DNA of 64,000 bases. Origin: Cirrosporium novae-zelandiae. Taxonomy: Eukaryota. The notes under the pieces are model-generated. The model did no database searches, was not told where the DNA came from, and saw nothing but the letters and a program-made list of their open reading frames with translations. The stretch is from positions 1 through 64,000 of the forward strand of contig JAPETS010000010.1 of NCBI GenBank assembly GCA_026023565.1, in the 5' to 3' direction. This document shows, piece by piece, positions 1-11,008 of the stretch (its first letter is position 1; each line of letters begins with the position of its first letter). Both the position numbers and the translations under genes were made by a program.

Positions 1-2
1 AA

Positions 3-182
3 GCTCGGGTGATTAACCTCCCTGACTTTGATATGGTTTTAGGACTGTCTTGGTTACGGAAACACGATCCGTATATCAAATGGAGCAATATGACAATGGA
101 GATCAGTGACGATATGAATCGCAAACACCAACGTTTGCGGAACTCGCAGACAGTCGACGTACAGGTGTACGTCCCCTTTTAG
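3..182 (+). CDS. C-terminal part of a retrotransposon aspartic protease (5'-partial)
   Basis: Manual frame-3 translation ARVINLPDFDMVLGLSWLRKHDPYIKWSNMTMEI...YVPF* matches the Gypsy retropepsin D-x-I/V-L-G-x-x-W-L-x-x-H-x-P-x-I-x-W pattern. Confidence 0.75.
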   Translation, partial: ARVINLPDFDMVLGLSWLRKHDPYIKWSNMTMEISDDMNRKHQRLRNSQTVDVQVYVPF

Positions 183-241
183 TAAGGGAGGAAGAGGCTA
201 GGATACAGCAACCGCAAAAAGCTGTAACGCTACCCTCAGTT

Positions 242-607
242 GTGACGGTTGAGGAACCTGCAGAATCTATGGTGGAATCTTATAATTTAACCCGTAAAGC
301 TTTTGCGGAGTTCGCAAAACCTAGTTCAAGTGCACAAGAACCGTTTGCGAGCGGAGCTCGAAAGACAGGAATGAAAGAAGATTCTGCGGAACAACCAGCA
401 CGTACAAGGTTTCTAGACGTGGAAACGACAAGATCTTCAGACGTGGAGATGACTGATATACCACCAGAAAACGACACAGAAATAATAGATACTGTTGTCG
501 AGGATAGTGAGGACCGATCATCCGAGATATATCCGCAAAGGTCTAGGAATTACAATCTACGAACGAAACTACAGAAGACTAGGAAATTTGATAATTCCTG
601 GGAATAA
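242..607 (+). CDS. Acidic low-complexity ORF of the retroelement (frame open from 110)
   Basis: ORF track, 121 aa; ends RSRNYNLRTKLQKTRKF, resembling R-x-Y-N-L-R tails of retroelement polyproteins; no RT or integrase motifs. Confidence 0.4.
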   Translation: MTVEEPAESMVESYNLTRKAFAEFAKPSSSAQEPFASGARKTGMKEDSAEQPARTRFLDVETTRSSDVEMTDIPPENDTEIIDTVVEDSEDRSSEIYPQRSRNYNLRTKLQKTRKFDNSWE

Positions 608-679
608 GTTTCATTCTAAAATTGTAAATAAGACACAACCAGAAAACAACCCGCGAACCCAGCCACAGCATTTATACAA

Positions 680-1334
680 TCACGTCAAGATAATGGCGTT
701 GGAAGGGGAGGAACCGGGAGGGAGGGAGCGAGCCGCGGGAGGAGGAGGAGAGGGCCCAGGCGACGGAGAGGAGGGCCCAGAAGAAGGAGGACGGAGAGAA
801 GACCCTAAGAAGTTAGTTGCGAATCGCAAAAGAAGGGATCCGTAGAAGAAAGAATAACTTACGACGAACACACCGAGCGGCAAGTGCCTGATAATGGCAA
901 CTCGCACATGCCCCATTAAGTTCTCCAGGATAATATCGACACTCCACAAAACAACCACGCCCAGCCGTACAATTCTCACACACGGGATCGCGAGGCCGAC
1001 CCAGCCCTATTCAACATAAGTATAAACAGTTACGAATCGTAAAGGAATCATAACTAAAATACTTACATTGGATCAACCCAGCTTCCGTATAAGACGACCG
1101 AGTCTGACCCGCAACAAAACTGGACAGCAACACGGTAGAAGACTCGCGGATCGCCATATGGGCGACCCCAGGGAGACGACCGGTTCGCAAAAGATCCAAC
1201 GCCGTTTGATATAAATGACGTTCTCTCTGAGTCCAAGGCCGAGGAGGATGCTGATTTATAGGGACCAATGGTCCCACCGGAGAAAAAGGAGGAGGAGCGC
1301 CACCGCCAGGAATAAGAGCCTGATTATTGTTCAT
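680..1334 (-). CDS. Spliced antisense Cys-rich protein, DUF3716-like, 178 aa; exons 1334-1067, 1006-863, 804-680
   Basis: Introns 1066-1007 (GTAAGT...AATAG) and 862-805 (GTAAGT...CTAAC...TTAG) join three exons in frame (268+144+125=537 nt). Core EAGLIQWLGRPRDPVCENCTAGRGCFVECRYYPGELNGACASCHYQALAARC fits the DUF3716 pattern as I recall it. Confidence 0.8.
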
Positions 1335-1390
1335 TTGCTATTTACGGATCAGTTTACGAACCAACATCATTCGCAATTCGATACTTACGA

Positions 1391-1461
1391 AGAAGGTGAA
1401 GTTGAGGTGAAGTTGAAGGTGAAGTAGAAGGTGAAGTAGAAGGTGAAGTTGAGGTGAAGTT
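1391..1461. repeat. Degenerate GAAGGT/GAAGTT/GAAGTA tandem repeat upstream of the antisense gene
   Basis: gaaggtgaagttgaggtgaagttgaaggtgaagtagaaggtgaagtagaaggtgaagttgaggtgaagtt is visible directly. Confidence 0.8.
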
Positions 1462-1836
1462 AAGATAAATTGAGGAAAAAGGATCTATTAACTGTTAACC
1501 ATTGCGGATTCATTCGTAAAAGGATTGACAGAGATAGATAGGGATTACTTACGGAAGAAGAATAGTTGCTGAAGAAAGAAGTGAGAAAGGAATTGACAGT
1601 CGTTATATAACCTTGGGTTAGTCACCCTAAAAGTGTTGGTTACGAAGATTCACTTTCACAATTCACTTACGGCTCGCAACTACAATCGACCGCACGTACC
1701 CTATACCTGAGTGTTACGATTCTATTCACTATATTCATTCATTTGGTTACGGATGGTATTCCTATCTACGATTACATACACAGCGATAGTGAGGTTGAAG
1801 AGACCAACCTTAGTAAGTAAGGGAGGCTGTGGTTTC

Positions 1837-2036
1837 TGTTAAGGATCTCGGAAGATGCCGTGCCAAGACTAGATAGTATAACTAGTATATTTTGGATAAA
1901 TTTAATAAAGAACGATACACAAAATCACAGATCCTCACCTTGCACCTTAGACCTAGCCTCCTCAGTCATCGAATACCACACCAGTTATACACCTAGATTG
2001 AGCCTCATAGAGCCCCATATCATAGGCGTCGTAACA
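1837..2036 (+). repeat. Candidate 3' LTR, 200 bp (alternative start TGTGG at 1828)
   Basis: Begins TGTTAAGG and ends TCGTAACA (terminal inverted TGTTA/TAACA); follows a polypurine tract; AT-rich host-like DNA resumes after it. Partner LTR not in the window. Confidence 0.65.
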
Positions 2037-2896
2037 GATTCATAATTATTATTAATTAGTCCGTCCAGTCGCTTTCATTTTTATTTTTTAATCCAAAAGG
2101 TATTTTCTATATATATATATATATATGTATCCTAATCCACCATCAAACCATATTGCAAACACCCACCACCCTTAGCCAACATTTGTTTTTTTTTTTTTTT
2201 TTTTTTCCTTTCTAGGACTCTTAACAGTTCTTATTCTTCGATGAATATTTTAACTGTACAGTGCTAGGACACCCTCGAAGGTCTATGCGGTAAAATCAAT
2301 GAATCTATTCTTCTATCTAGCTACTACTCAAACATGACTCGCGTTTACGCTCAAATAACCGACAACTAACTAGTAAGCGAGTCTATAACCGCGAAGCGGC
2401 TACGTAGCCTAAAGCCATAACATACACCGTAACATCCAGTATGCCGGAAGGCAGATGGATGATATAAGACCAAGTTTAAATAGCATTTAACTAAGTTTGA
2501 GAAAATTTCGAATGGGATCTTAGGGAGGAGAATCGAGCGTTAAACCTATGTAACTACATAGCCTACAAGATTAGGACGACTCGACTCAGGATAAATAATC
2601 AACCAAACCAACCAGCTGATCAACCGAGATAAATAGATAGATGAAAGGACTTTTGGGCATGGTGGGTTTTCACATAGTAGCTACTAGATGCCTCCCAGGG
2701 TTAGGAATAGACTGGACCAAATAGAGCGTCTATATAAATACGAATTATATGATGGGGAGGGGTGGACTTTGGGGGATATCGGGATTCGGAATTTATGGAA
2801 TTTTGGGTTTTAACCTAAAGCCAAAAAGGTATCATTAATCTCCCCCCCCCCCCCCCACATCCCCCAATATAGCCCTGAATATCTACCCGTTGTGTC

Positions 2897-3130
2897 TCTG
2901 AGTATTGAGGCCCTGACTGGGCTTGCAACTGAGGCTTGTATTAAGGCTTCTACTAAGGTCCTGGCTGAACTTCTGACTGAGCTTCTGATTGAGGCTTCTA
3001 TTGAGGCTCGCACTGAGTATTCTACTAGGTATTTTACTCAGTACAATACGCCCATCCCGCCACTGAGGTTTCCCCCAAGACACAGACTGAGTATTCCCTT
3101 GAAGCATTGACCGAGGCTTTGATTAAGGTA
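2897..3130. repeat. Degenerate 12-bp minisatellite (consensus about GAGGCTTCTAYT)
   Basis: Units such as gaggcttgtatt, aaggcttctact, gagcttctgatt, gaggcttctatt, gaggctcgcact; these account for the ORFs on both strands. Confidence 0.7.
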
Positions 3131-3149
3131 TTGCAACACGTCCCCCTTG

Positions 3150-4335
3150 ATCACGCAAGCGATGATTACCCATACTGAGTACAAACAAGCCCAAAATGTC
3201 CAAAATAATATGTGTTATTTTGTCTAAGCATGTAGAATTAATTCTATGAAAAACATGCCATCTATACTATCTATTCTTGGCACGGAATATGCCAGAACAT
3301 TAATTTAACCCTTTCGAAAAGCCACACTCTGGGTCCTGTTCTGGGTCCTGCTTTGGCATCCTGCTAGGGTTGTTGTTTCGTGTCAGGATGTAGAATCAAA
3401 TCTATCCCTCAGCAGAACCATTCTTACTGAATTGTTCCTTCAATATGGTTGCGTTGGAACGAATGAAGCGAGAAAGCTGAAGAATTAGATTATTGACGGC
3501 GGACTTCCAACAATGGATCCCGGGTATATCAAGATGTTCTTCAGGGACGAGGGCTTCGACAAGATTCTTTGAAGCTGGTGGCTATTAAAGAAGCCTTCAA
3601 CAAAATTAGACCAGTATTGATGAATTAAAAAGAAAGAAACATACCTTGAAGCTGGTGTTGCTTTTTTTTCGGGACCGGACCCCCAGGCTCAAGCAACAGC
3701 TCGGAGGAGCCCGAAAAAAGCTCCCCTCCCCCCCTTGGTCTCCCCCCCTTAGTCTCCCCCACAACACCCCTTCCCCTCCACAGAGCACGCCGCCACCATG
3801 ACGGACGACGCAGCACCCACCACTGTTGGCCGCAAAGCGGCGCGGACGAACTGTTCAGGCGAGTCAGTCAACTGCCACGGGATGAGAGAAAGGGAGGTAC
3901 ATACAGACGAGAAAGGCATATTTAATAAAAATATTAATATTAATTAGACAGGTAATATGTCTTAATATTAATATAGGGAACAAAAAAAGAAAGGCAGACT
4001 GAGGAGAAGGCCGACATGGTTTTGCTGATGTGACTTCTTTTTGTGACTGACTATTCAGAGGATATTCAAGGATGATGGTTTTGTAATAGAAGAGAAATCC
4101 AGATAGATATACCCCCGCACGGGGAGTCCATGCACACGAGCTACTGTAATCCCATGGTAATATGCAAGCAAAAAGGCAAGAACACAGCAGGTTCCATAAC
4201 AAAGGAAACATACCTGAGAGCATTATTGAGAAAAGGGTGAGGATGTATCACTACTAGTCACTACTCTTTCTGCTAAAGGGTTATTCGTCAAACTCAGAAG
4301 CCATAGTGGATGGATCTATATGGTGAGCAGCAGTC
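3150..4335. repeat. Dispersed repeat copy A, homologous to 55590-57125 in the same orientation
   Basis: Shared blocks include TCAGGGACGAGG(G/A)CTTCGACAA..TTCTTTGAAGCTGGTG, ATTGATGAATTAAAAAGAAAGAAACATACCTTGAAGCTG, AAAGGGTTATTCGT and GATCTATATGGTGAG. Confidence 0.85.
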
Positions 4336-6630
4336 CCCTAGTAAATTAGATCCATCAATAGCAAAGGAAGTCATAGTGGCCATGGACTGACTGCACTCGT
4401 AGCCAGGTCGAGTCTTCCGTGTGGTAAGAGGGGCAAGAACGCTGCAAGATCCATAACAGAGAACCCCCTTTCTTTCAAGCTTATAGTCGCTTAGGATCGT
4501 GTGTTGAGAAGTGGTAAATTTCAATTTTCAGGTCCGTTTAAGTCCTTTGTAATCAGTCTCGTCTCACTAGTGAATTTATTTATTATACAAATATCATATG
4601 AAAATCATTTTGATATGATCGCCAGTGGATGTTTCGATATTAAGCCAAAGTTTATTCATTCTAGCCGCACACATGATATTGAACTATATATTCTAGAGGT
4701 CTGTTGTATATAAAAAAAAAACTAGTAACTCATTCAGATCAATACCCTTATAAGTTACAAGAAATAAAGTCCAGGTCTTCATTTTATATACAAAAGGGGG
4801 CGTGATTAACGAACGGACTTTAGGATTCGGATTGAGGAGAATAAAGTAAAGGGGGTTGGTTTTTTTGAGAATTATATAGTTGAGAAAGAGAATGGGGGGG
4901 TAGAAGGGATTTTGAGAAGAGCGACGGTCCTTTGTCTGTGAAAATACTTCTACAGAGGTAGCCACTTGCTCCCAAGTTCCACATTCTGCTGTTTCCATTG
5001 TGGAATGGTCTTTGCTACCCGAATGAACCAAGGGAGTACGGTCCGACGTATCCCTCTGGCTGGTCCTAGAGCTCCATGAGCCAGGTGTGGTTTTGAGATT
5101 CTGATCTGCCCTTGCACATATGGTACAGGGGTCTAAGCAGCCCCATAAGATTCTAGATCAGTTTTAGTTGACAACTTATCAGCAATCTTGGTGACTTGCC
5201 CTTCATTTCTTTCTCATGGCTCTCATACCATTTATCGATCTATTCTTATCCTGAAATTCCTAGAATTTACTCATAACCTGATGAGTGTAGTCTGTTGGGG
5301 ATCCTGGAACAGTTCCTGAACGTCAGCTTAAAAGATACTACCTTTTTTTTGCCCTCTTTGAATGTAGAATCATATCTTGATGATTCTTCAACAGTCTCAC
5401 GGGAGTCTTTGTCTGAGCAAGGTCTCTTGCATTCTTGAAATAGGAGGGTGCCATCCCGTCCTCAGAAAACACGGACATCGCCGAAGAACCTTCGGAAGGA
5501 GCGACTGTAGCGGCAGTGGGGACAGAACACAGACATCATCCTTGAAAACTTGGTTCGTTTGTCGTTGTGGATGTGTCTTGGGGATAGGAGACCAAACTAG
5601 AAATGGAGATGAATATAAAAGCTCCAAGTCCCTGCTGTGGGAAAGAGCCACGTCCCACAAGGTGACGAGGTTGTGTACGAATTTCAAGCCATCGGCATTT
5701 GTTTTGGTCTCAACCACTAGTTTGGCTGCATTCTTTGGTTCTTTTCGATATACATTATGGGAGGAGTATCGATCTAGAGACAGGTAAGGAGGCCATCTTG
5801 AATAGCTTCATAGACAGGAACTGTTGGAGGGTCCATAACATTCACGGAATTATCAAATAGCTCTGGCTTATCCAGTTCATCAATGTCATCAACAAATTCA
5901 TTTCCATCAATGCCATAATGCCATTTACAGTGCGCTGGAGATCGCTTGATTTGGATTGACCTGAAACTAACAGTGTAAAAGCAGAGATCTGTGAAATAAT
6001 GTACCTAAGGAAAGTATTATAGTAGATGTTAGATGTTACGTGTATATAGCAAGTAATGAACTATGAAGAGTAAGACAAGGGAATATAGACATAGGCATCA
6101 TAAAGAATCGGCAGATAGAACATGCAATAAGGACAAGCCATCTATCTCAATGTCAAGAAAAGAAAAGAAAAGGATTGAACAAGTACAATAGCAAAAGCAA
6201 ACAAATTTAGCTATGGAATCGCGAGTTCCTCCTGGAAGTCGAGAGAGGCTAGTATCAGTAAGCAAAAGTCTCAAAGTATTAGTTACCATGACTGATTGTT
6301 TCTGCTTTCTGGATGAAGATGAGGAAAAGAATTTGGGTTTGGGGAGGAGGGAGAAGGAGATATTTATGCTGTGGTTGAGATGCGAAAGTCTACATAGGCT
6401 AAGGTAAAACTTCACTGTTTGCAAATTCTGTTTGCGCTTCATCACAAGACTCATGTAAGATGCAATGATGGTGATGATGCATGAACGGCATTGCTGCCCA
6501 AGCCAGAGCCGATTCACTTCCATATGTCTTCACAGTTTTTTTGGTTTGACATTAGCGTTAATATGACATGTGCGACCTATGCTGTTGTTCGTTTCATCAG
6601 CAAGATTCACGCCTTCTAAGTTCTACTTTC

Positions 6631-7833: not shown

Positions 7834-10800
7834 TTATCTTGCAATTCGCTGAATTAAACCCTGAATTGACATTAGTCAGAAGTCCCTTCATGAATATCTC
7901 AAAGCCTTACCTGGAAAAAGTGTTTAAACCCCTTGCTATCTAGCGTCATCAAGGCCTTTAGGTACTCGCCCGCAAGATCGTCGTTCATCCCCATACTCCT
8001 CAGCTCCGTCTCTCGCAACCACGAAAAATAAGAGTCTCCACAAACGCTATAGATCGTCTTCTGGAGGCCTGCGGCTTCGTTCAAAGCTTGTTTCGCCTGT
8101 GCATCTTTGGGATTGAATGACGCCGCAGCAGCCCAGCATAAGGGGGAAAATCGAGTCATCATGAACTGGTCAAATCCAGGGAGAGCATGTTTTGCAGGAT
8201 CTGTACCACCCCAGGTTGTTGCCATTTTGCTGAGGACGAGGAATGCCATTTTGGATGTAGGAAAGTCGTTGGAGTCTTTGGCAAAGAGTTCAAGCATGGA
8301 GATGACGGTCTCGAAAGCACCTTGGTTTCTTGGACTAATTAGAATACTACCGAGGTCGTTGTTGAGGATGACTAGGAGGAAGTTTAGGTATTCGCGCTTG
8401 AGCTCTGCGGATTGAATCTCATCGTCGGTACCTGCCGGAGGTTCTGCAATACCATTGAATACGCGTTGCATGAAAGGGGTAAGGAGGGTGTCTAAAATGT
8501 CTGATATTTCCCCTTTGAATCCATGAATTACTTGCTCCATTAGTCGTAGGAACAAGGCCATTTCATCTTTCGTTGAACTCTGGGTCACAAGACCGTCAAT
8601 CCATCGAGAGAGCTGAGGAAGAATGTTTCGACCAATCACACCAATCAGCCTGGAGAATGCAAATCTCGAAGCAGTCCGGATCTGAAAGGATTCATTCAAT
8701 GTTTCTAGAGCTGTGAGGGTTGCATCACCGACTCTGGTAAATTCTATGGATACTTCTTGGGCTGGAGGACTTCCAGAAGTACTTCCAGGAGACCATTCGG
8801 AGTATCCCTTCGCCAGAGTTCCGAGGGCCATTATATCATGATGGACTTGGAGAGCCGCTCGCTCATCACCACCCTTTGCTGATGGAAGTTGTGATTCCAT
8901 GTCAGAAAATATAGGGTTCATGATTGTTTGAGCAATAAGAGCTTGCTTGTCAACAGGGACCGCTGAAGTTGCTGATATGCATCCGATAGCCTCGAACAGG
9001 TTCAGTTGGCCTACAAAGATTGTATCAGCCGAGTTTTCGCTGGTTACATCATCCGATGACATGTCATTTTCTTCGTTATCTCCGGACAGCTCGGCCATGA
9101 TTGGGAGAAGAGGCTGCAAGGCACCGATGACGGATTCTGCTACATCACCAATATGAAACCTCATTTGCCGCAGGAATCGAAGGAGCAGATACCAGGATCG
9201 CAACTTGACCTTTGGAGAAGGTGAGTGAACTAGCTGTAAAAGGGATTCCAGAACTCGCGGGATCATTGAGGGATTCATTTCAAAGAATGAGCTGTAACGG
9301 ACGCAAATCTCCATATAGAGGACCTGGGTGGCAGGATGCCTGAAGCCAGAGATATTGGATTCGGCCAATTTGGCAAGCATAGCAGCTAGTCGTTCCGCTG
9401 CAGGTGAGACAGGTCTCTTCTTCGAATAAAGACCCCCGGACTTCACAGCCAAGTCCCCTAACTGGTACATTTCGTAAAGACCGAGTTCTAGCTCTCTCCA
9501 GTCAAGCTGGTCTCCACTTTGCTCAAGAGCTTGAAATATCCTACCAACAACATTACTGATAAACTCCAGGTACATTGGCTCGTCGATTGCAAAAATGATT
9601 TGTTGAAGATTATTCAGCCGTTTCCGAAGCTCTTGAAATTCCGCCTCATCAGTTTGGTCATCTTCTTCTCCCCAGCTTGATGTCTCGTCGTACTTGACTT
9701 TGGTAACTATCGCACCTAATATCGGTCCTAGGGACCGAGAATACTGTTCCGGAAGGGAACCATGTGCTTTTGCATATTTTCGGAAGAATCCAAGAACGTC
9801 GCTCAGAGCAGGAATAACGGTCGAGCAGACTTCATCATATTCATCAGAAAAGAATCGTAGAATATGCTGCATGAATGCTCTTAAAAGCTCCTCCGCTCGA
9901 ATCCTAGCTTCTGCGGATAACGAAGCGGCCTCTAATGACTTTATGATGTCGACACTAGTGATATTCACAAGCTTAGCCACGGTTTCTGCAAAGTCAGTAT
10001 CATATTTTGAACTAAAGCGGAGTTCGCTCAAGGCGGGACTCGTAATTAGTTGGGAAATGACTTGATCAAGGTTTAAAAAGACAATCAAATCAATCTTGTC
10101 GCCTGGTTGCATTCCCTTGCCAACAATCTCAGCAAAAGTGTCAACTGTAGCATCCCGCACCTTCTCTTCGGCCTGCCCGAGACTCTGTTGTTGGGTCCGG
10201 CTGACTTGGTCATACAGTAGGGAGAGAAATGTTTGATCGACGAGCAGAGAAATATCAACCCAACTAACCCACCGCCCAATTGTTCTCAAGCACATCTCGA
10301 TGATGCTGTAGTCTTTCCCCCTCCATTGCGTCAATATTTCTTGCCAGGAAAGAATAATTCTGCGCATATCTCGAACTCGTACAAGGTCTTTTAGCTCATT
10401 TGCTTTTGATTTTTCTTCTTCTGACCGAAGAATAATTTGATCTGCAATTTCTTCGTGAACAGAATTTAATATCCGTAGGTATAGGGCAACCCCTGGTGCG
10501 TGACCCTCCATGTCTCCATTCTTGGGTATATTGGTAAGACCAAGAAAGTCTGAAAAAAAACTTTCCCATCCCGCAGCATACAATACTGAGAAAAGAAATG
10601 TCATGGCCTGGGTCAACTTGTTTTGCATGGCCGGAGTATCAACTTTTGACTTGTCCCCTTGGGGGCCGTAAATATTTAGAATATACTGCCATAAATTTTC
10701 CTTGACCGTTGCCAATCCTTGTTGATCTAGATATCCAGAACGTATAGTATTATTGACGAGCTCAAGGCCCACGTGCCTAACAACATCATCCAACGGCGGA

Positions 10801-11008
10801 TCCCGAGTAAAGAGTGACAGGCAGACCTGCCATGCGGAGGGGTTCGAACGAAGTCCGGTGAGATATTCATATGCTGCGGCTTTAAGCCTTTGATCGGATG
10901 TAGGGTCCCAGGCGACACGGATAGCATTTGTAACCTAATAGAAGTTCCCCGGGTCAGCTTCTGGTCCGAAGTAATTTTCCCAAGGCTGGATGGTACCTCT
11001 TCCTCCAT
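7834..11008 (-). CDS. los1: Exportin-T (tRNA exportin), 3 exons
   Basis: 964-aa ORF; spliced N-terminus MEEE|VTNAIRVAWDP; RFFSDEYDEV and EAEFQELRKRL motifs; short last exon GLIQRIAR*. Confidence 0.93.

Follow-up and report, generated by a model that had tools for sequence, protein, structure and literature searches.

We analysed a 64,000-nt stretch of the genome of Cirrosporium novae-zelandiae, which belongs to the class Xylobotryomycetes (contig JAPETS010000010.1 of assembly GCA_026023565.1, positions 1 to 64,000 of the forward strand; hereafter "the window", whose numbering is used throughout unless a locus is named). Near its left end we found an intact gene for a DUF3716 protein, split by two introns and lying on the minus strand at 680-1334, within a mobile element that is present in several near-identical copies. 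The element is most likely a long terminal repeat (LTR) retrotransposon of the Ty3/Gypsy type, and the reading that we favour, with somewhat better than even confidence, is that the window holds such a retrotransposon together with an antisense accessory gene of its own. Of the eight closest relatives found for the cysteine core of the encoded protein, at least four are on transposons of another class, the Helitrons.

An intact, split DUF3716 gene on the minus strand

The three exons of the gene (268 + 144 + 125 = 537 nt) join in frame into a protein of 178 aa. Read on the minus strand, exon 1 (1067..1334) opens with the ATG at 1334-1332 and encodes a proline-rich N-terminal arm, of which only the last ~12 residues resemble relatives. 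Intron 1 (1007..1066, minus strand) is 60 nt in length and runs from GTAAGT to AG. Exon 2 (863..1006, minus strand) encodes the DUF3716 core of six cysteines and one histidine and is followed by intron 2 (805..862, minus strand), which is 58 nt in length, again begins with GTAAGT and ends with AG, and carries CTAAC 10 nt before its end. Exon 3 (680..804, minus strand) encodes a Pro/Ser-rich tail and closes with TGA at 682-680. The joint between exons 1 and 2 falls at residues 89|90 of the protein. These coordinates agree with a preliminary description of this DNA, made from its letters, which had proposed two introns and three exons giving 178 aa in frame. The proline-rich arms described there were also found, and so was every spacer of its cysteine pattern except the last: the core reads C99-x2-C102-x5-C108-x3-C112-x10-C123-x2-C126-H127-x7-C135, with seven residues and not six in the final spacer.

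A Pfam scan bore out the assignment to DUF3716. The open reading frame (ORF) of exon 2 alone (window:813-1010:-) matched PF12511 with an E value of 1.7e-9 and 37.9 bits over profile positions 8-57 of 59, which is 16 bits above the gathering cut-off of 22 bits; exons 1 and 3 gave no Pfam match. Seven ligand-type columns, six cysteines and one histidine, are invariant in eight relatives retrieved from metagenome contigs (described below), and exon 2 of the window keeps all of them, C108 being an extra cysteine relative to these columns.

The eight relatives were also used to build a profile from which the window row was excluded. The spliced protein scored 44.7 bits against this profile over residues 78-141, a region that spans the exon 1/2 joint, as compared with 35.8 bits for exon 2 alone. 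None of 200 controls in which exon 1 had been shuffled reached 44.7 bits (mean 38.0, sd 1.8, maximum 43.9). Removal of intron 1 restores the alignment to the intron-less relatives over residues 78-141, and this homology across the joint therefore supports intron 1; the placement of intron 2 is suggested by its splice signals and by the reading frame. Judged from the sequence, the DUF3716 gene of the window is real, split and intact.

Apart from these residues, exon 1 has no detectable relative. An exhaustive HMMER search of exon 1 (89 aa) against 1.84 billion representatives gave a single match (E 4.4e-4), to a repetitive protein, which we judged spurious, and a word-index search of exon 1 against proteins of 59-189 aa found no relative. 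Exon 2 gave no match in a word-index search against longer proteins.

The gene lies within a young, multi-copy repeat

Contigs assembled from one DNA run (X1) were aligned to window 1-6000; two other runs of the same study, X2 and X3, gave no contig that aligned there. Those covering 129-426 and 753-1854 had depths of 1350 and 1139, respectively, and did not differ from the window at any position, the second of them accounting for 1102 nt, while contigs over 2217-2856, 2967-3645 and 3642-6000, at depths of 331, 372 and 363, served as the single-copy reference. The word depth of the element contigs is 3.1-3.7 times that of the flanking single-copy contigs, which we read as about 3-4 near-identical copies of the element in the genome; the estimate uses per-contig word depths and assumes one genome, and the summed depth is not a copy number. 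The preliminary description had placed the gene within an element and not in single-copy host DNA, and the depths agree.

A diverged copy was found in a contig of 6399 letters with a depth of 337, which matches 254-631, 776-1405 and 1714-1857 of the window in the same order, with 81, 109 and 19 differences in the three segments, respectively. Exon 1 of this copy carries in-frame indels at 1290 and 1302, and a further 4805 letters lie upstream, enough room for a full gag-pol. Within 500-900 the diverged copy shows 19 visible changes, five of them in exon 2, and one of these is C135Y at an invariant cysteine. Over all contigs on window 1-6000, C>T or G>A accounted for 176 of the 201 variant places (88%). 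Classical repeat-induced point mutation (RIP) was considered for the diverged copy, and the direction of the changes and their 88% share fit it, but of the C>T/G>A changes that are visible, no more than 5 of 19 stand in the classical CpA/TpG context, and we therefore speak of RIP-like mutation and not of RIP. In the window copy the indices are mildly RIP-like (TpA/ApT 0.96 and (CpA+TpG)/(ApC+GpT) 0.87, as compared with 0.60 and 1.42 for the exportin gene); the DUF3716 frame of this copy is intact despite this. The preliminary description had also called the gene "maintained". The copies of the window's own family do not show this, the near-identical ones being too alike for selection to be read from them and the one diverged copy being damaged.

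An LTR-like end on the right side of the gene

A run resembling a polypurine tract (PPT) lies on the plus strand at 1815..1826; 11 of its 12 letters are purines, a C follows, and the boundary of a repeat comes directly afterwards. The LTR-like terminal repeat itself (1828..2181, plus strand) has a supported start at TGTGG, and its end, ..CCAACA at 2181, is a guess. Several observations mark this boundary. At 1857, that is 1827 + 30, the contig with the diverged copy comes to its end, as 31-letter words entering a repeat at 1828 predict; the contig of threefold depth stops at 1854; and the summed contig depth climbs to 47,494 in the bin 1801-2000. Moreover, a diverged inverted copy of the start of the repeat lies at 3205..3326 on the minus strand (pair I1) in single-depth surroundings. 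Its similarity, read from 3326 to 3205, starts exactly at TGTGG and amounts to 76-77% identity (76% over 68 nt), and the summed depth is raised in the bin 3201-3400. No direct copy of 1828-2181 was found within the 64 kb. The purine run and the TGTGG repeat at 1815-1832 look like the signature of a PPT followed by a 3' LTR, in keeping with the preliminary description, which had put a PPT and an LTR here.

The first ~100-140 nt of the LTR-like repeat (1857-1970) are far more abundant than the remainder. The summed depth is 97,427 at 1886 (17 contigs), about 4,900-6,000 at 1967-1975 and 977 in the next bin, the single-copy level being ~363. Scans of 1-6000 for tRNAs and Rfam families found no tRNA and one sub-threshold match to a long noncoding RNA. 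The abundant segment could be a short element in its own right or the portion of the sequence that numerous solo LTRs have kept.

Plus-strand frames and the left breakpoint

To the left of the gene, a 165-codon ORF without a Pfam family occupies 110..607 on the plus strand, and we read it as the C-terminal tail of the main ORF of the element. It contains no chromodomain according to Pfam and gave no usable match in the ESM Atlas. Its stop and the end of exon 3 (680) are 73 nt apart, the two frames being convergent, so that the antisense gene (680-1334) sits between the end of this ORF (607) and the PPT-like run (1815-1826).

A retropepsin-like fragment (3..128, plus strand) is open at the left end of the window. 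Its Pfam match, to RVP_2, lies below threshold (E 0.18, 12 bits against a cut-off of 20.3) and covers profile positions 100-129 of 136, about the C-terminal quarter of a retropepsin. This 59-aa protease-like tail is the sole protein basis in the window for a Gypsy identity. A motif of the 'ILG-DWL-KH-P-I-W' type is presumably a mark of the retropepsin domain. In the ESM Atlas the protease piece found one weak entry, at rank 30, with RVP_2 on 13% of its members, and a word-index search of the piece against longer proteins found only P0001. The latter, listed at NCBI as 'MAG: hypothetical protein M1834_000530, partial', is a 170-aa product of window 45-607 (plus strand) in which an intron bridges the protease-like piece (frame 3) and ORF 110-607 (frame 2), the latter making up most of it; the model probably arose as an artefact of gene finding across transposon remains.

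The two plus-strand frames meet at a breakpoint (123..128), on both sides of which other copies differ from the window. One X1 contig matches up to 127 and continues with 255 unlike letters; in two others the match begins at 123 and extends to the right, preceded by 25 letters that both have in common and that differ from the window; and the contig over 129-426 begins exactly at 129. Translated by eye, the 25 letters read NQELEVEVE, in frame with ORF 110-607 and free of stops, and lead into the TPTF.. of the window. The breakpoint may be a deletion junction with few shared bases or an assembly join. Since the protease-like piece is joined directly to the 3' region at 123-128, the window copy is probably internally deleted, unless the joint was made in assembly. 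On the simplest reading, protease, reverse transcriptase/RNase H/integrase and the tail follow one another in full-length copies, and a deletion between short similar sequences removed the middle part from the window copy.

We consider it fairly likely that the element is an LTR retrotransposon; that it is of the Ty3/Gypsy type seems, from its sequence features, likely but is unproven. The Gypsy type proposed in the preliminary description agrees with the PPT- and LTR-like features and less well with the protein evidence, which amounts to the protease-like tail at E 0.18, with no reverse transcriptase or integrase in the window. Of the position given there for the gene, between a protease and the PPT/LTR, the strand and the order stand, and the protease match is sub-threshold.

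A putative promoter and 5' untranslated region

A candidate TATA box (TATATAA) lies at 1603..1609 on the minus strand, which fits the suggestion in the preliminary description of a promoter of the gene's own near 1400-1800. Two candidate introns of the 5' untranslated region (UTR) are predicted between this box and the start codon. The one at 1338..1388 (minus strand, 51 nt, GTAAGT..AG) would remove the upstream ATGs at 1370 and 1367, and the other at 1485..1552 (minus strand, 68 nt, GTAAGT..TTAAC..AG) those at 1513 and 1502; together they cover all four ATGs between 1700 and 1335.

A tandem array with a unit of ~12 nt occupies 1391..1472 (family D1, five overlapping 35-nt copies at a spacing of 11-12). 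It comprises about seven repeats, is purine-rich on the plus strand and lies 57-140 nt upstream of the ATG. If the candidate introns are correct, the array would fall within the spliced 5' UTR of the DUF3716 gene. The diverged copy has 275 unlike letters in place of 1406-1713, tandem array included.

At least four of the eight nearest relatives are carried by Helitrons

A scan of metagenome contigs gave eight loci (L001-L008) whose translations are 44-51% identical to the cysteine core of the window protein. All seven relatives that were scanned passed the Pfam cut-off for DUF3716, and L006 was aligned only. The most complete picture comes from L005 (region 300-6114), in which the DUF3716 gene (518-1593, plus strand, in two or more exons) converges on an intact ORF of 1492 aa that matches Helitron_like_N (E 2.1e-56) and PIF1 (E 1.2e-69); the gene lies backwards between this Rep/PIF1-helicase (RepHel) ORF and a GC-rich terminal palindrome. 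A helicase C-terminus occupies the same place in L002 (Pif1_2B, E 1.7e-12), and L003 and L006 share with L005 the same order over the DUF3716 gene and the 3' end of RepHel, at 67-76% nucleotide identity. By DNA similarity, L001, L004 and L007 belong to the same Helitron family, with contigs too short to reach the helicase; in L001 the far flank holds a host PIG-U gene. The mutual similarity of L005, L001 and L004 begins just outside the GC-rich palindrome, which resembles the 3' hairpin of a Helitron. In L008 the DUF3716 gene stands beside a host ABC transporter gene. The preliminary description had considered that homologues might occur only as host genes unlinked to LTRs. This was found to be true in part: none of the eight stands beside LTR-element genes, but at least four are transposon cargo.

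Among the DUF3716 ORFs of L001, L002, L004, L005 and L007, the ratio of nonsynonymous to synonymous substitution rates (dN/dS) was 0.14-0.38 in 7 of the 10 pairs, the other three pairs being saturated. The Helitron-borne relatives of the DUF3716 gene are under purifying selection.

The window and L005 showed no similarity outside the cysteine core in a tblastx comparison, and a Pfam scan of window ORFs 3-182 and 110-607 found neither PIF1 nor Helitron_like_N. Viral contigs scanned with the domain alignment gave no match.

The structure prediction proposed in the preliminary description succeeded for a relative and not for the window protein. The model of the 47-aa core of the window was poor (predicted local distance difference test, pLDDT, 55.7), whereas that of the L005 domain (758-1141, 128 aa, from a 9-row alignment) was confident (pLDDT 89.8, predicted template modelling score 0.84). 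In the latter model three helices precede the cysteine core, which would make the core part of a larger domain of ~120 aa. No solved structure matched the model, either in Foldseek (none at E <= 0.001) or in VIA-align (none of 48,161 PDB chains at Z >= 2), nor did any BFVD entry, and a search of PDB by sequence found no match. The fold therefore gives no functional lead, and the absence of a match does not show it to be new.

Neighbouring features of the window

To the right of the element, the first gene that clearly belongs to the host encodes exportin-T (7899..10934, minus strand), with an uninterrupted frame of 1011 codons and Pfam matches to Exportin-T (E 5.7e-286) and Xpo1 (E 6.2e-32). 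Otherwise the window consists of ordinary fungal gene space, with genes for a FGGY kinase, a cation-efflux protein, a Sir2 protein, a fungal transcription factor and others. Between the element and exportin-T, at 2750-3110, overlapping long frames on both strands encode a repeated motif rich in Ser, Ile, Glu and Ala, and some contigs there are raised in depth. Length variants of this region were seen in X1, namely a deletion of 15 nt at 2896, skipped stretches of 97-100 nt and a strand-switch joint at 2759/3269. The region may represent a minisatellite or some other relic of a repeat.

Weighing the alternative readings

A number of points weigh against reading the window as a Gypsy-type element with an antisense accessory gene. 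The protease match is below the Pfam threshold (E 0.18), no reverse transcriptase, RNase H or integrase was found in 1-2400 and no 5' LTR, primer-binding site or target-site duplication was seen, the window beginning inside the element, and with a breakpoint at 123-128 the protease-like piece could belong to a different, neighbouring repeat. The size of the diverged copy, 6.4 kb, agrees with a gag-pol plus 1.2 kb, but a Helitron would be accommodated as well as a Gypsy element. As for the relatives, a helicase was seen in four of the eight, three more belong to the same family by DNA similarity and one is host-adjacent, while LTR-retrotransposon genes adjoin none of these nearest retrieved relatives. 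Furthermore, exon 1 is without detectable relatives beyond its last ~12 residues, the antisense gene was not found among the annotated proteins searched, the visible changes of the diverged copy are mostly outside the classical RIP context, and the high summed depths cannot be taken as copy numbers. As to function, the parts available of the literature consulted do not show DUF3716 to be the DNA-binding part of NCU05718, a host protein of Neurospora crassa with this domain, the binding region being unmapped.

As an alternative, the repeat at 129-1857 might be a 5'-truncated non-LTR element, Helitron-like or REP9/IS3EU-like, that abuts an unrelated Gypsy protease relic at 1-128, and the DUF3716 gene would then be the antisense cargo of that element, as in the metagenome Helitrons. 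We regard this as unlikely, although it would accommodate the sub-threshold protease match and the different sequence that other copies have on both sides of 123-128; the nearest relatives are borne by Helitrons and show the same convergent arrangement, with 46 nt to the RepHel stop in L005 as against 73 nt in the window, a 6.4-kb copy has space for a 4.5-kb RepHel plus cargo, and REP9, a published DNA transposon, carries DUF3716 genes. However, no helicase or Rep family was found in ORF 110-607, whereas the helicase domains of L005 run nearly to the stop, and the frame of this ORF extends upstream in other copies. Nor does the repeat end in a GC-rich terminal hairpin such as those of L005, L001 and L004, a 6-bp stem near 1800-1857 being all that was seen by eye; and the purine run and the TG repeat, present in intact and diverged copies and far above the body of the element in abundance, are LTR-like. 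Two further explanations concern the gene and not the element. In one, which we think quite improbable, the gene is a captured host DUF3716 gene that has no role for the element, a neutral passenger kept intact merely through very recent amplification. The near-identical copies (0 differences over 1102 nt) indeed give no evidence of selection, the only old copy carries damage (C135Y), exon 1 is orphan sequence, and DUF3716 genes do stand beside host genes (the ABC transporter gene of L008, the PIG-U flank of L001) or are published as host genes (PSC58/NCU05718). Random capture, on the other hand, would hardly place DUF3716 in the same position and orientation on several classes of transposon. 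The dN/dS of the Helitron-borne relatives (0.14-0.38) speaks against a passenger as well, as does the tidy structure of the window gene, with its splice signals, its TATA box and four upstream ATGs that all fall within candidate introns. The other explanation, that there is no gene but a chance open frame with chance splice signals, is close to refuted. The gene is a model from sequence alone that was not found among the annotated proteins, but one exon scores 16 bits over the Pfam cut-off, the invariant Cys/His columns are all kept, homology crosses the exon 1/2 joint with no control out of 200 equalling its score, and both introns have full fungal consensus ends.

A proposed mechanism and its significance

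Our preferred explanation is an intact accessory gene within a young, multi-copy mobile element, most likely a Ty3/Gypsy LTR retrotransposon. The main ORF of such an element would run on the plus strand and end at 607, and the DUF3716 gene would lie backwards before the PPT and 3' LTR (1815-1832). Transcription of the gene probably starts from a TATA promoter of its own near 1603-1609 and is followed by splicing, giving a product in which a DUF3716 Cys6-His zinc cluster would stand between disordered proline-rich arms. Antisense introns survive reverse transcription, which is the principle of antisense-intron retrotransposition reporters. By the same logic, the genomic RNA of the element would contain the introns of the DUF3716 gene in antisense; they would therefore stay in the RNA that is reverse-transcribed, so that each new copy would inherit the split gene. 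Full-length RNA of the element necessarily spans the gene in antisense, and both transcripts could therefore pair. The window copy, probably internally deleted and non-autonomous, would still carry the accessory gene.

The protein may bind zinc through its six cysteines and one histidine, and perhaps also DNA. Its most likely role would be to bind DNA or chromatin for the benefit of the element, in transcription, targeting or protection from silencing; this is the least supported step of the proposal. A broader view, which we find possible but doubtful, is that DUF3716, far from being a host domain taken up by transposons on occasion, is an accessory module dedicated to transposons, which has spread among unrelated classes of them: LTR retrotransposons, Helitrons (L001-L007) and IS3EU transposons (REP9). 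Under that broader view the module would in every case follow the main ORF in reverse orientation, and its product would be a zinc-cluster protein that binds DNA and has a fold unlike solved structures. It would serve a shared need of these elements in fungi, such as escape from genome defence or target choice, and host copies of the NCU05718 type would be domesticated. If the tie between DUF3716 and transposons proves general, the domain would be a testable candidate for a factor common to very different fungal transposons.

Extra genes of retrotransposons are rare handles on the dealings between element and host, and no antisense one has a known function. The present case ties an antisense accessory gene to a named fungal domain, DUF3716, and its intact copies offer a clean sequence to express and assay, which is uncommon where genome defence mutates fungal repeats.

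Comparison with known systems

An antisense extra gene named brtn has reportedly been found in the Boty-like Ty3/Gypsy elements of Botrytis cinerea and Sclerotinia, in work said to be by Zhao and colleagues and to date from 2011. The available part of a review (PMC7264820) names Boty, with brtn, and also Grande1, RIRE2, Retand and PvRetro13 as elements that have an additional ORF in antisense between pol and the 3' LTR. The brtn gene is drawn on BcGypsy1 and is missing from the latest B05.10 annotation, according to the available text of PMC8365987, and the pol of Boty comprises reverse transcriptase, integrase and a chromodomain (PMC4227169, in the part available). Like brtn, the DUF3716 gene of the window belongs to a fungal element, would lie antisense in the interval from pol to the 3' LTR, and was not found among the annotated proteins. 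Unlike the Boty pol as there described, the window has no reverse transcriptase or integrase, and its last 165 plus-strand codons contain no chromodomain. The host class, Xylobotryomycetes, also differs, and the two genes are likened by position and orientation, not by sequence. The placement between pol and the 3' LTR applies to the window only if its element is an LTR retrotransposon. Within the literature that we found on antisense additional ORFs in fungal retrotransposons, only the Botrytis work was relevant, and the listed titles on Cirrosporium included nothing on transposons.

The plant elements of the same review (maize Grande1, rice RIRE2, Silene Retand and Phaseolus PvRetro13; PMC7264820, in its available part) have their antisense ORFs in the same position and orientation as the window gene; these ORFs are conserved within families and their function is likewise unknown. 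They differ in belonging to plants and in encoding, by the account of the review, unrelated proteins, and DUF3716 is not mentioned in the available part of the review.

DUF3716 itself has been reported from another transposon. REP9, an IS3EU DNA transposon of Zymoseptoria tritici, carries two DUF3716 genes, REP9-1 and REP9-2, and altered expression of REP9-1 changed the formation of pycnidia, as stated in the available text of PMC8232023. By that account REP9 resembles the window element in bearing DUF3716 as multi-copy transposon cargo without a signal peptide and likewise of unknown function, and differs in being a class II element with an integrase-like transposase, whereas the window element is LTR-like; the two are likened by description only. 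The Helitron family of L001-L007 provides the closest relatives of the cysteine core that we found (44-51% identity). In these Helitrons, too, the gene is convergent with the main ORF near the 3' end, and an intron donor follows a few codons after the last cysteine, as in the window (by eye). However, the main ORF encodes a Rep/PIF1 helicase, the element ends in a GC-rich hairpin, and these Helitron loci have conserved the N-terminal ~70 residues of the folded domain, for which exon 1 of the window shows no detectable conservation. The literature that we found mentioning DUF3716 by name contained no description of it as Helitron cargo, and nothing on LTR elements.

Host proteins with the domain supply the only biochemical lead. 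PSC58 of Fusarium graminearum is a DUF3716 protein orthologous to NCU05718 of N. crassa, according to the available text of PMC10776026, and recombinant NCU05718 directly binds double-stranded TTAGGG repeats, with no DNA-binding domain assigned to it in the available part of PMC4650311. NCU05718 and PSC58 share the Pfam domain of the window protein by the label published in PMC10776026, on which the likeness is based; they differ from it in being single host genes and not transposon cargo.

In summary, the window taken alone is one more instance of an arrangement known in outline, in a Gypsy context that is incomplete, and it adds to that arrangement intact young copies, an unusual host class (Xylobotryomycetes) and closest relatives that are carried by Helitrons. 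The antisense DUF3716 gene is a further example of this known arrangement, and the closest published case is brtn of Boty.

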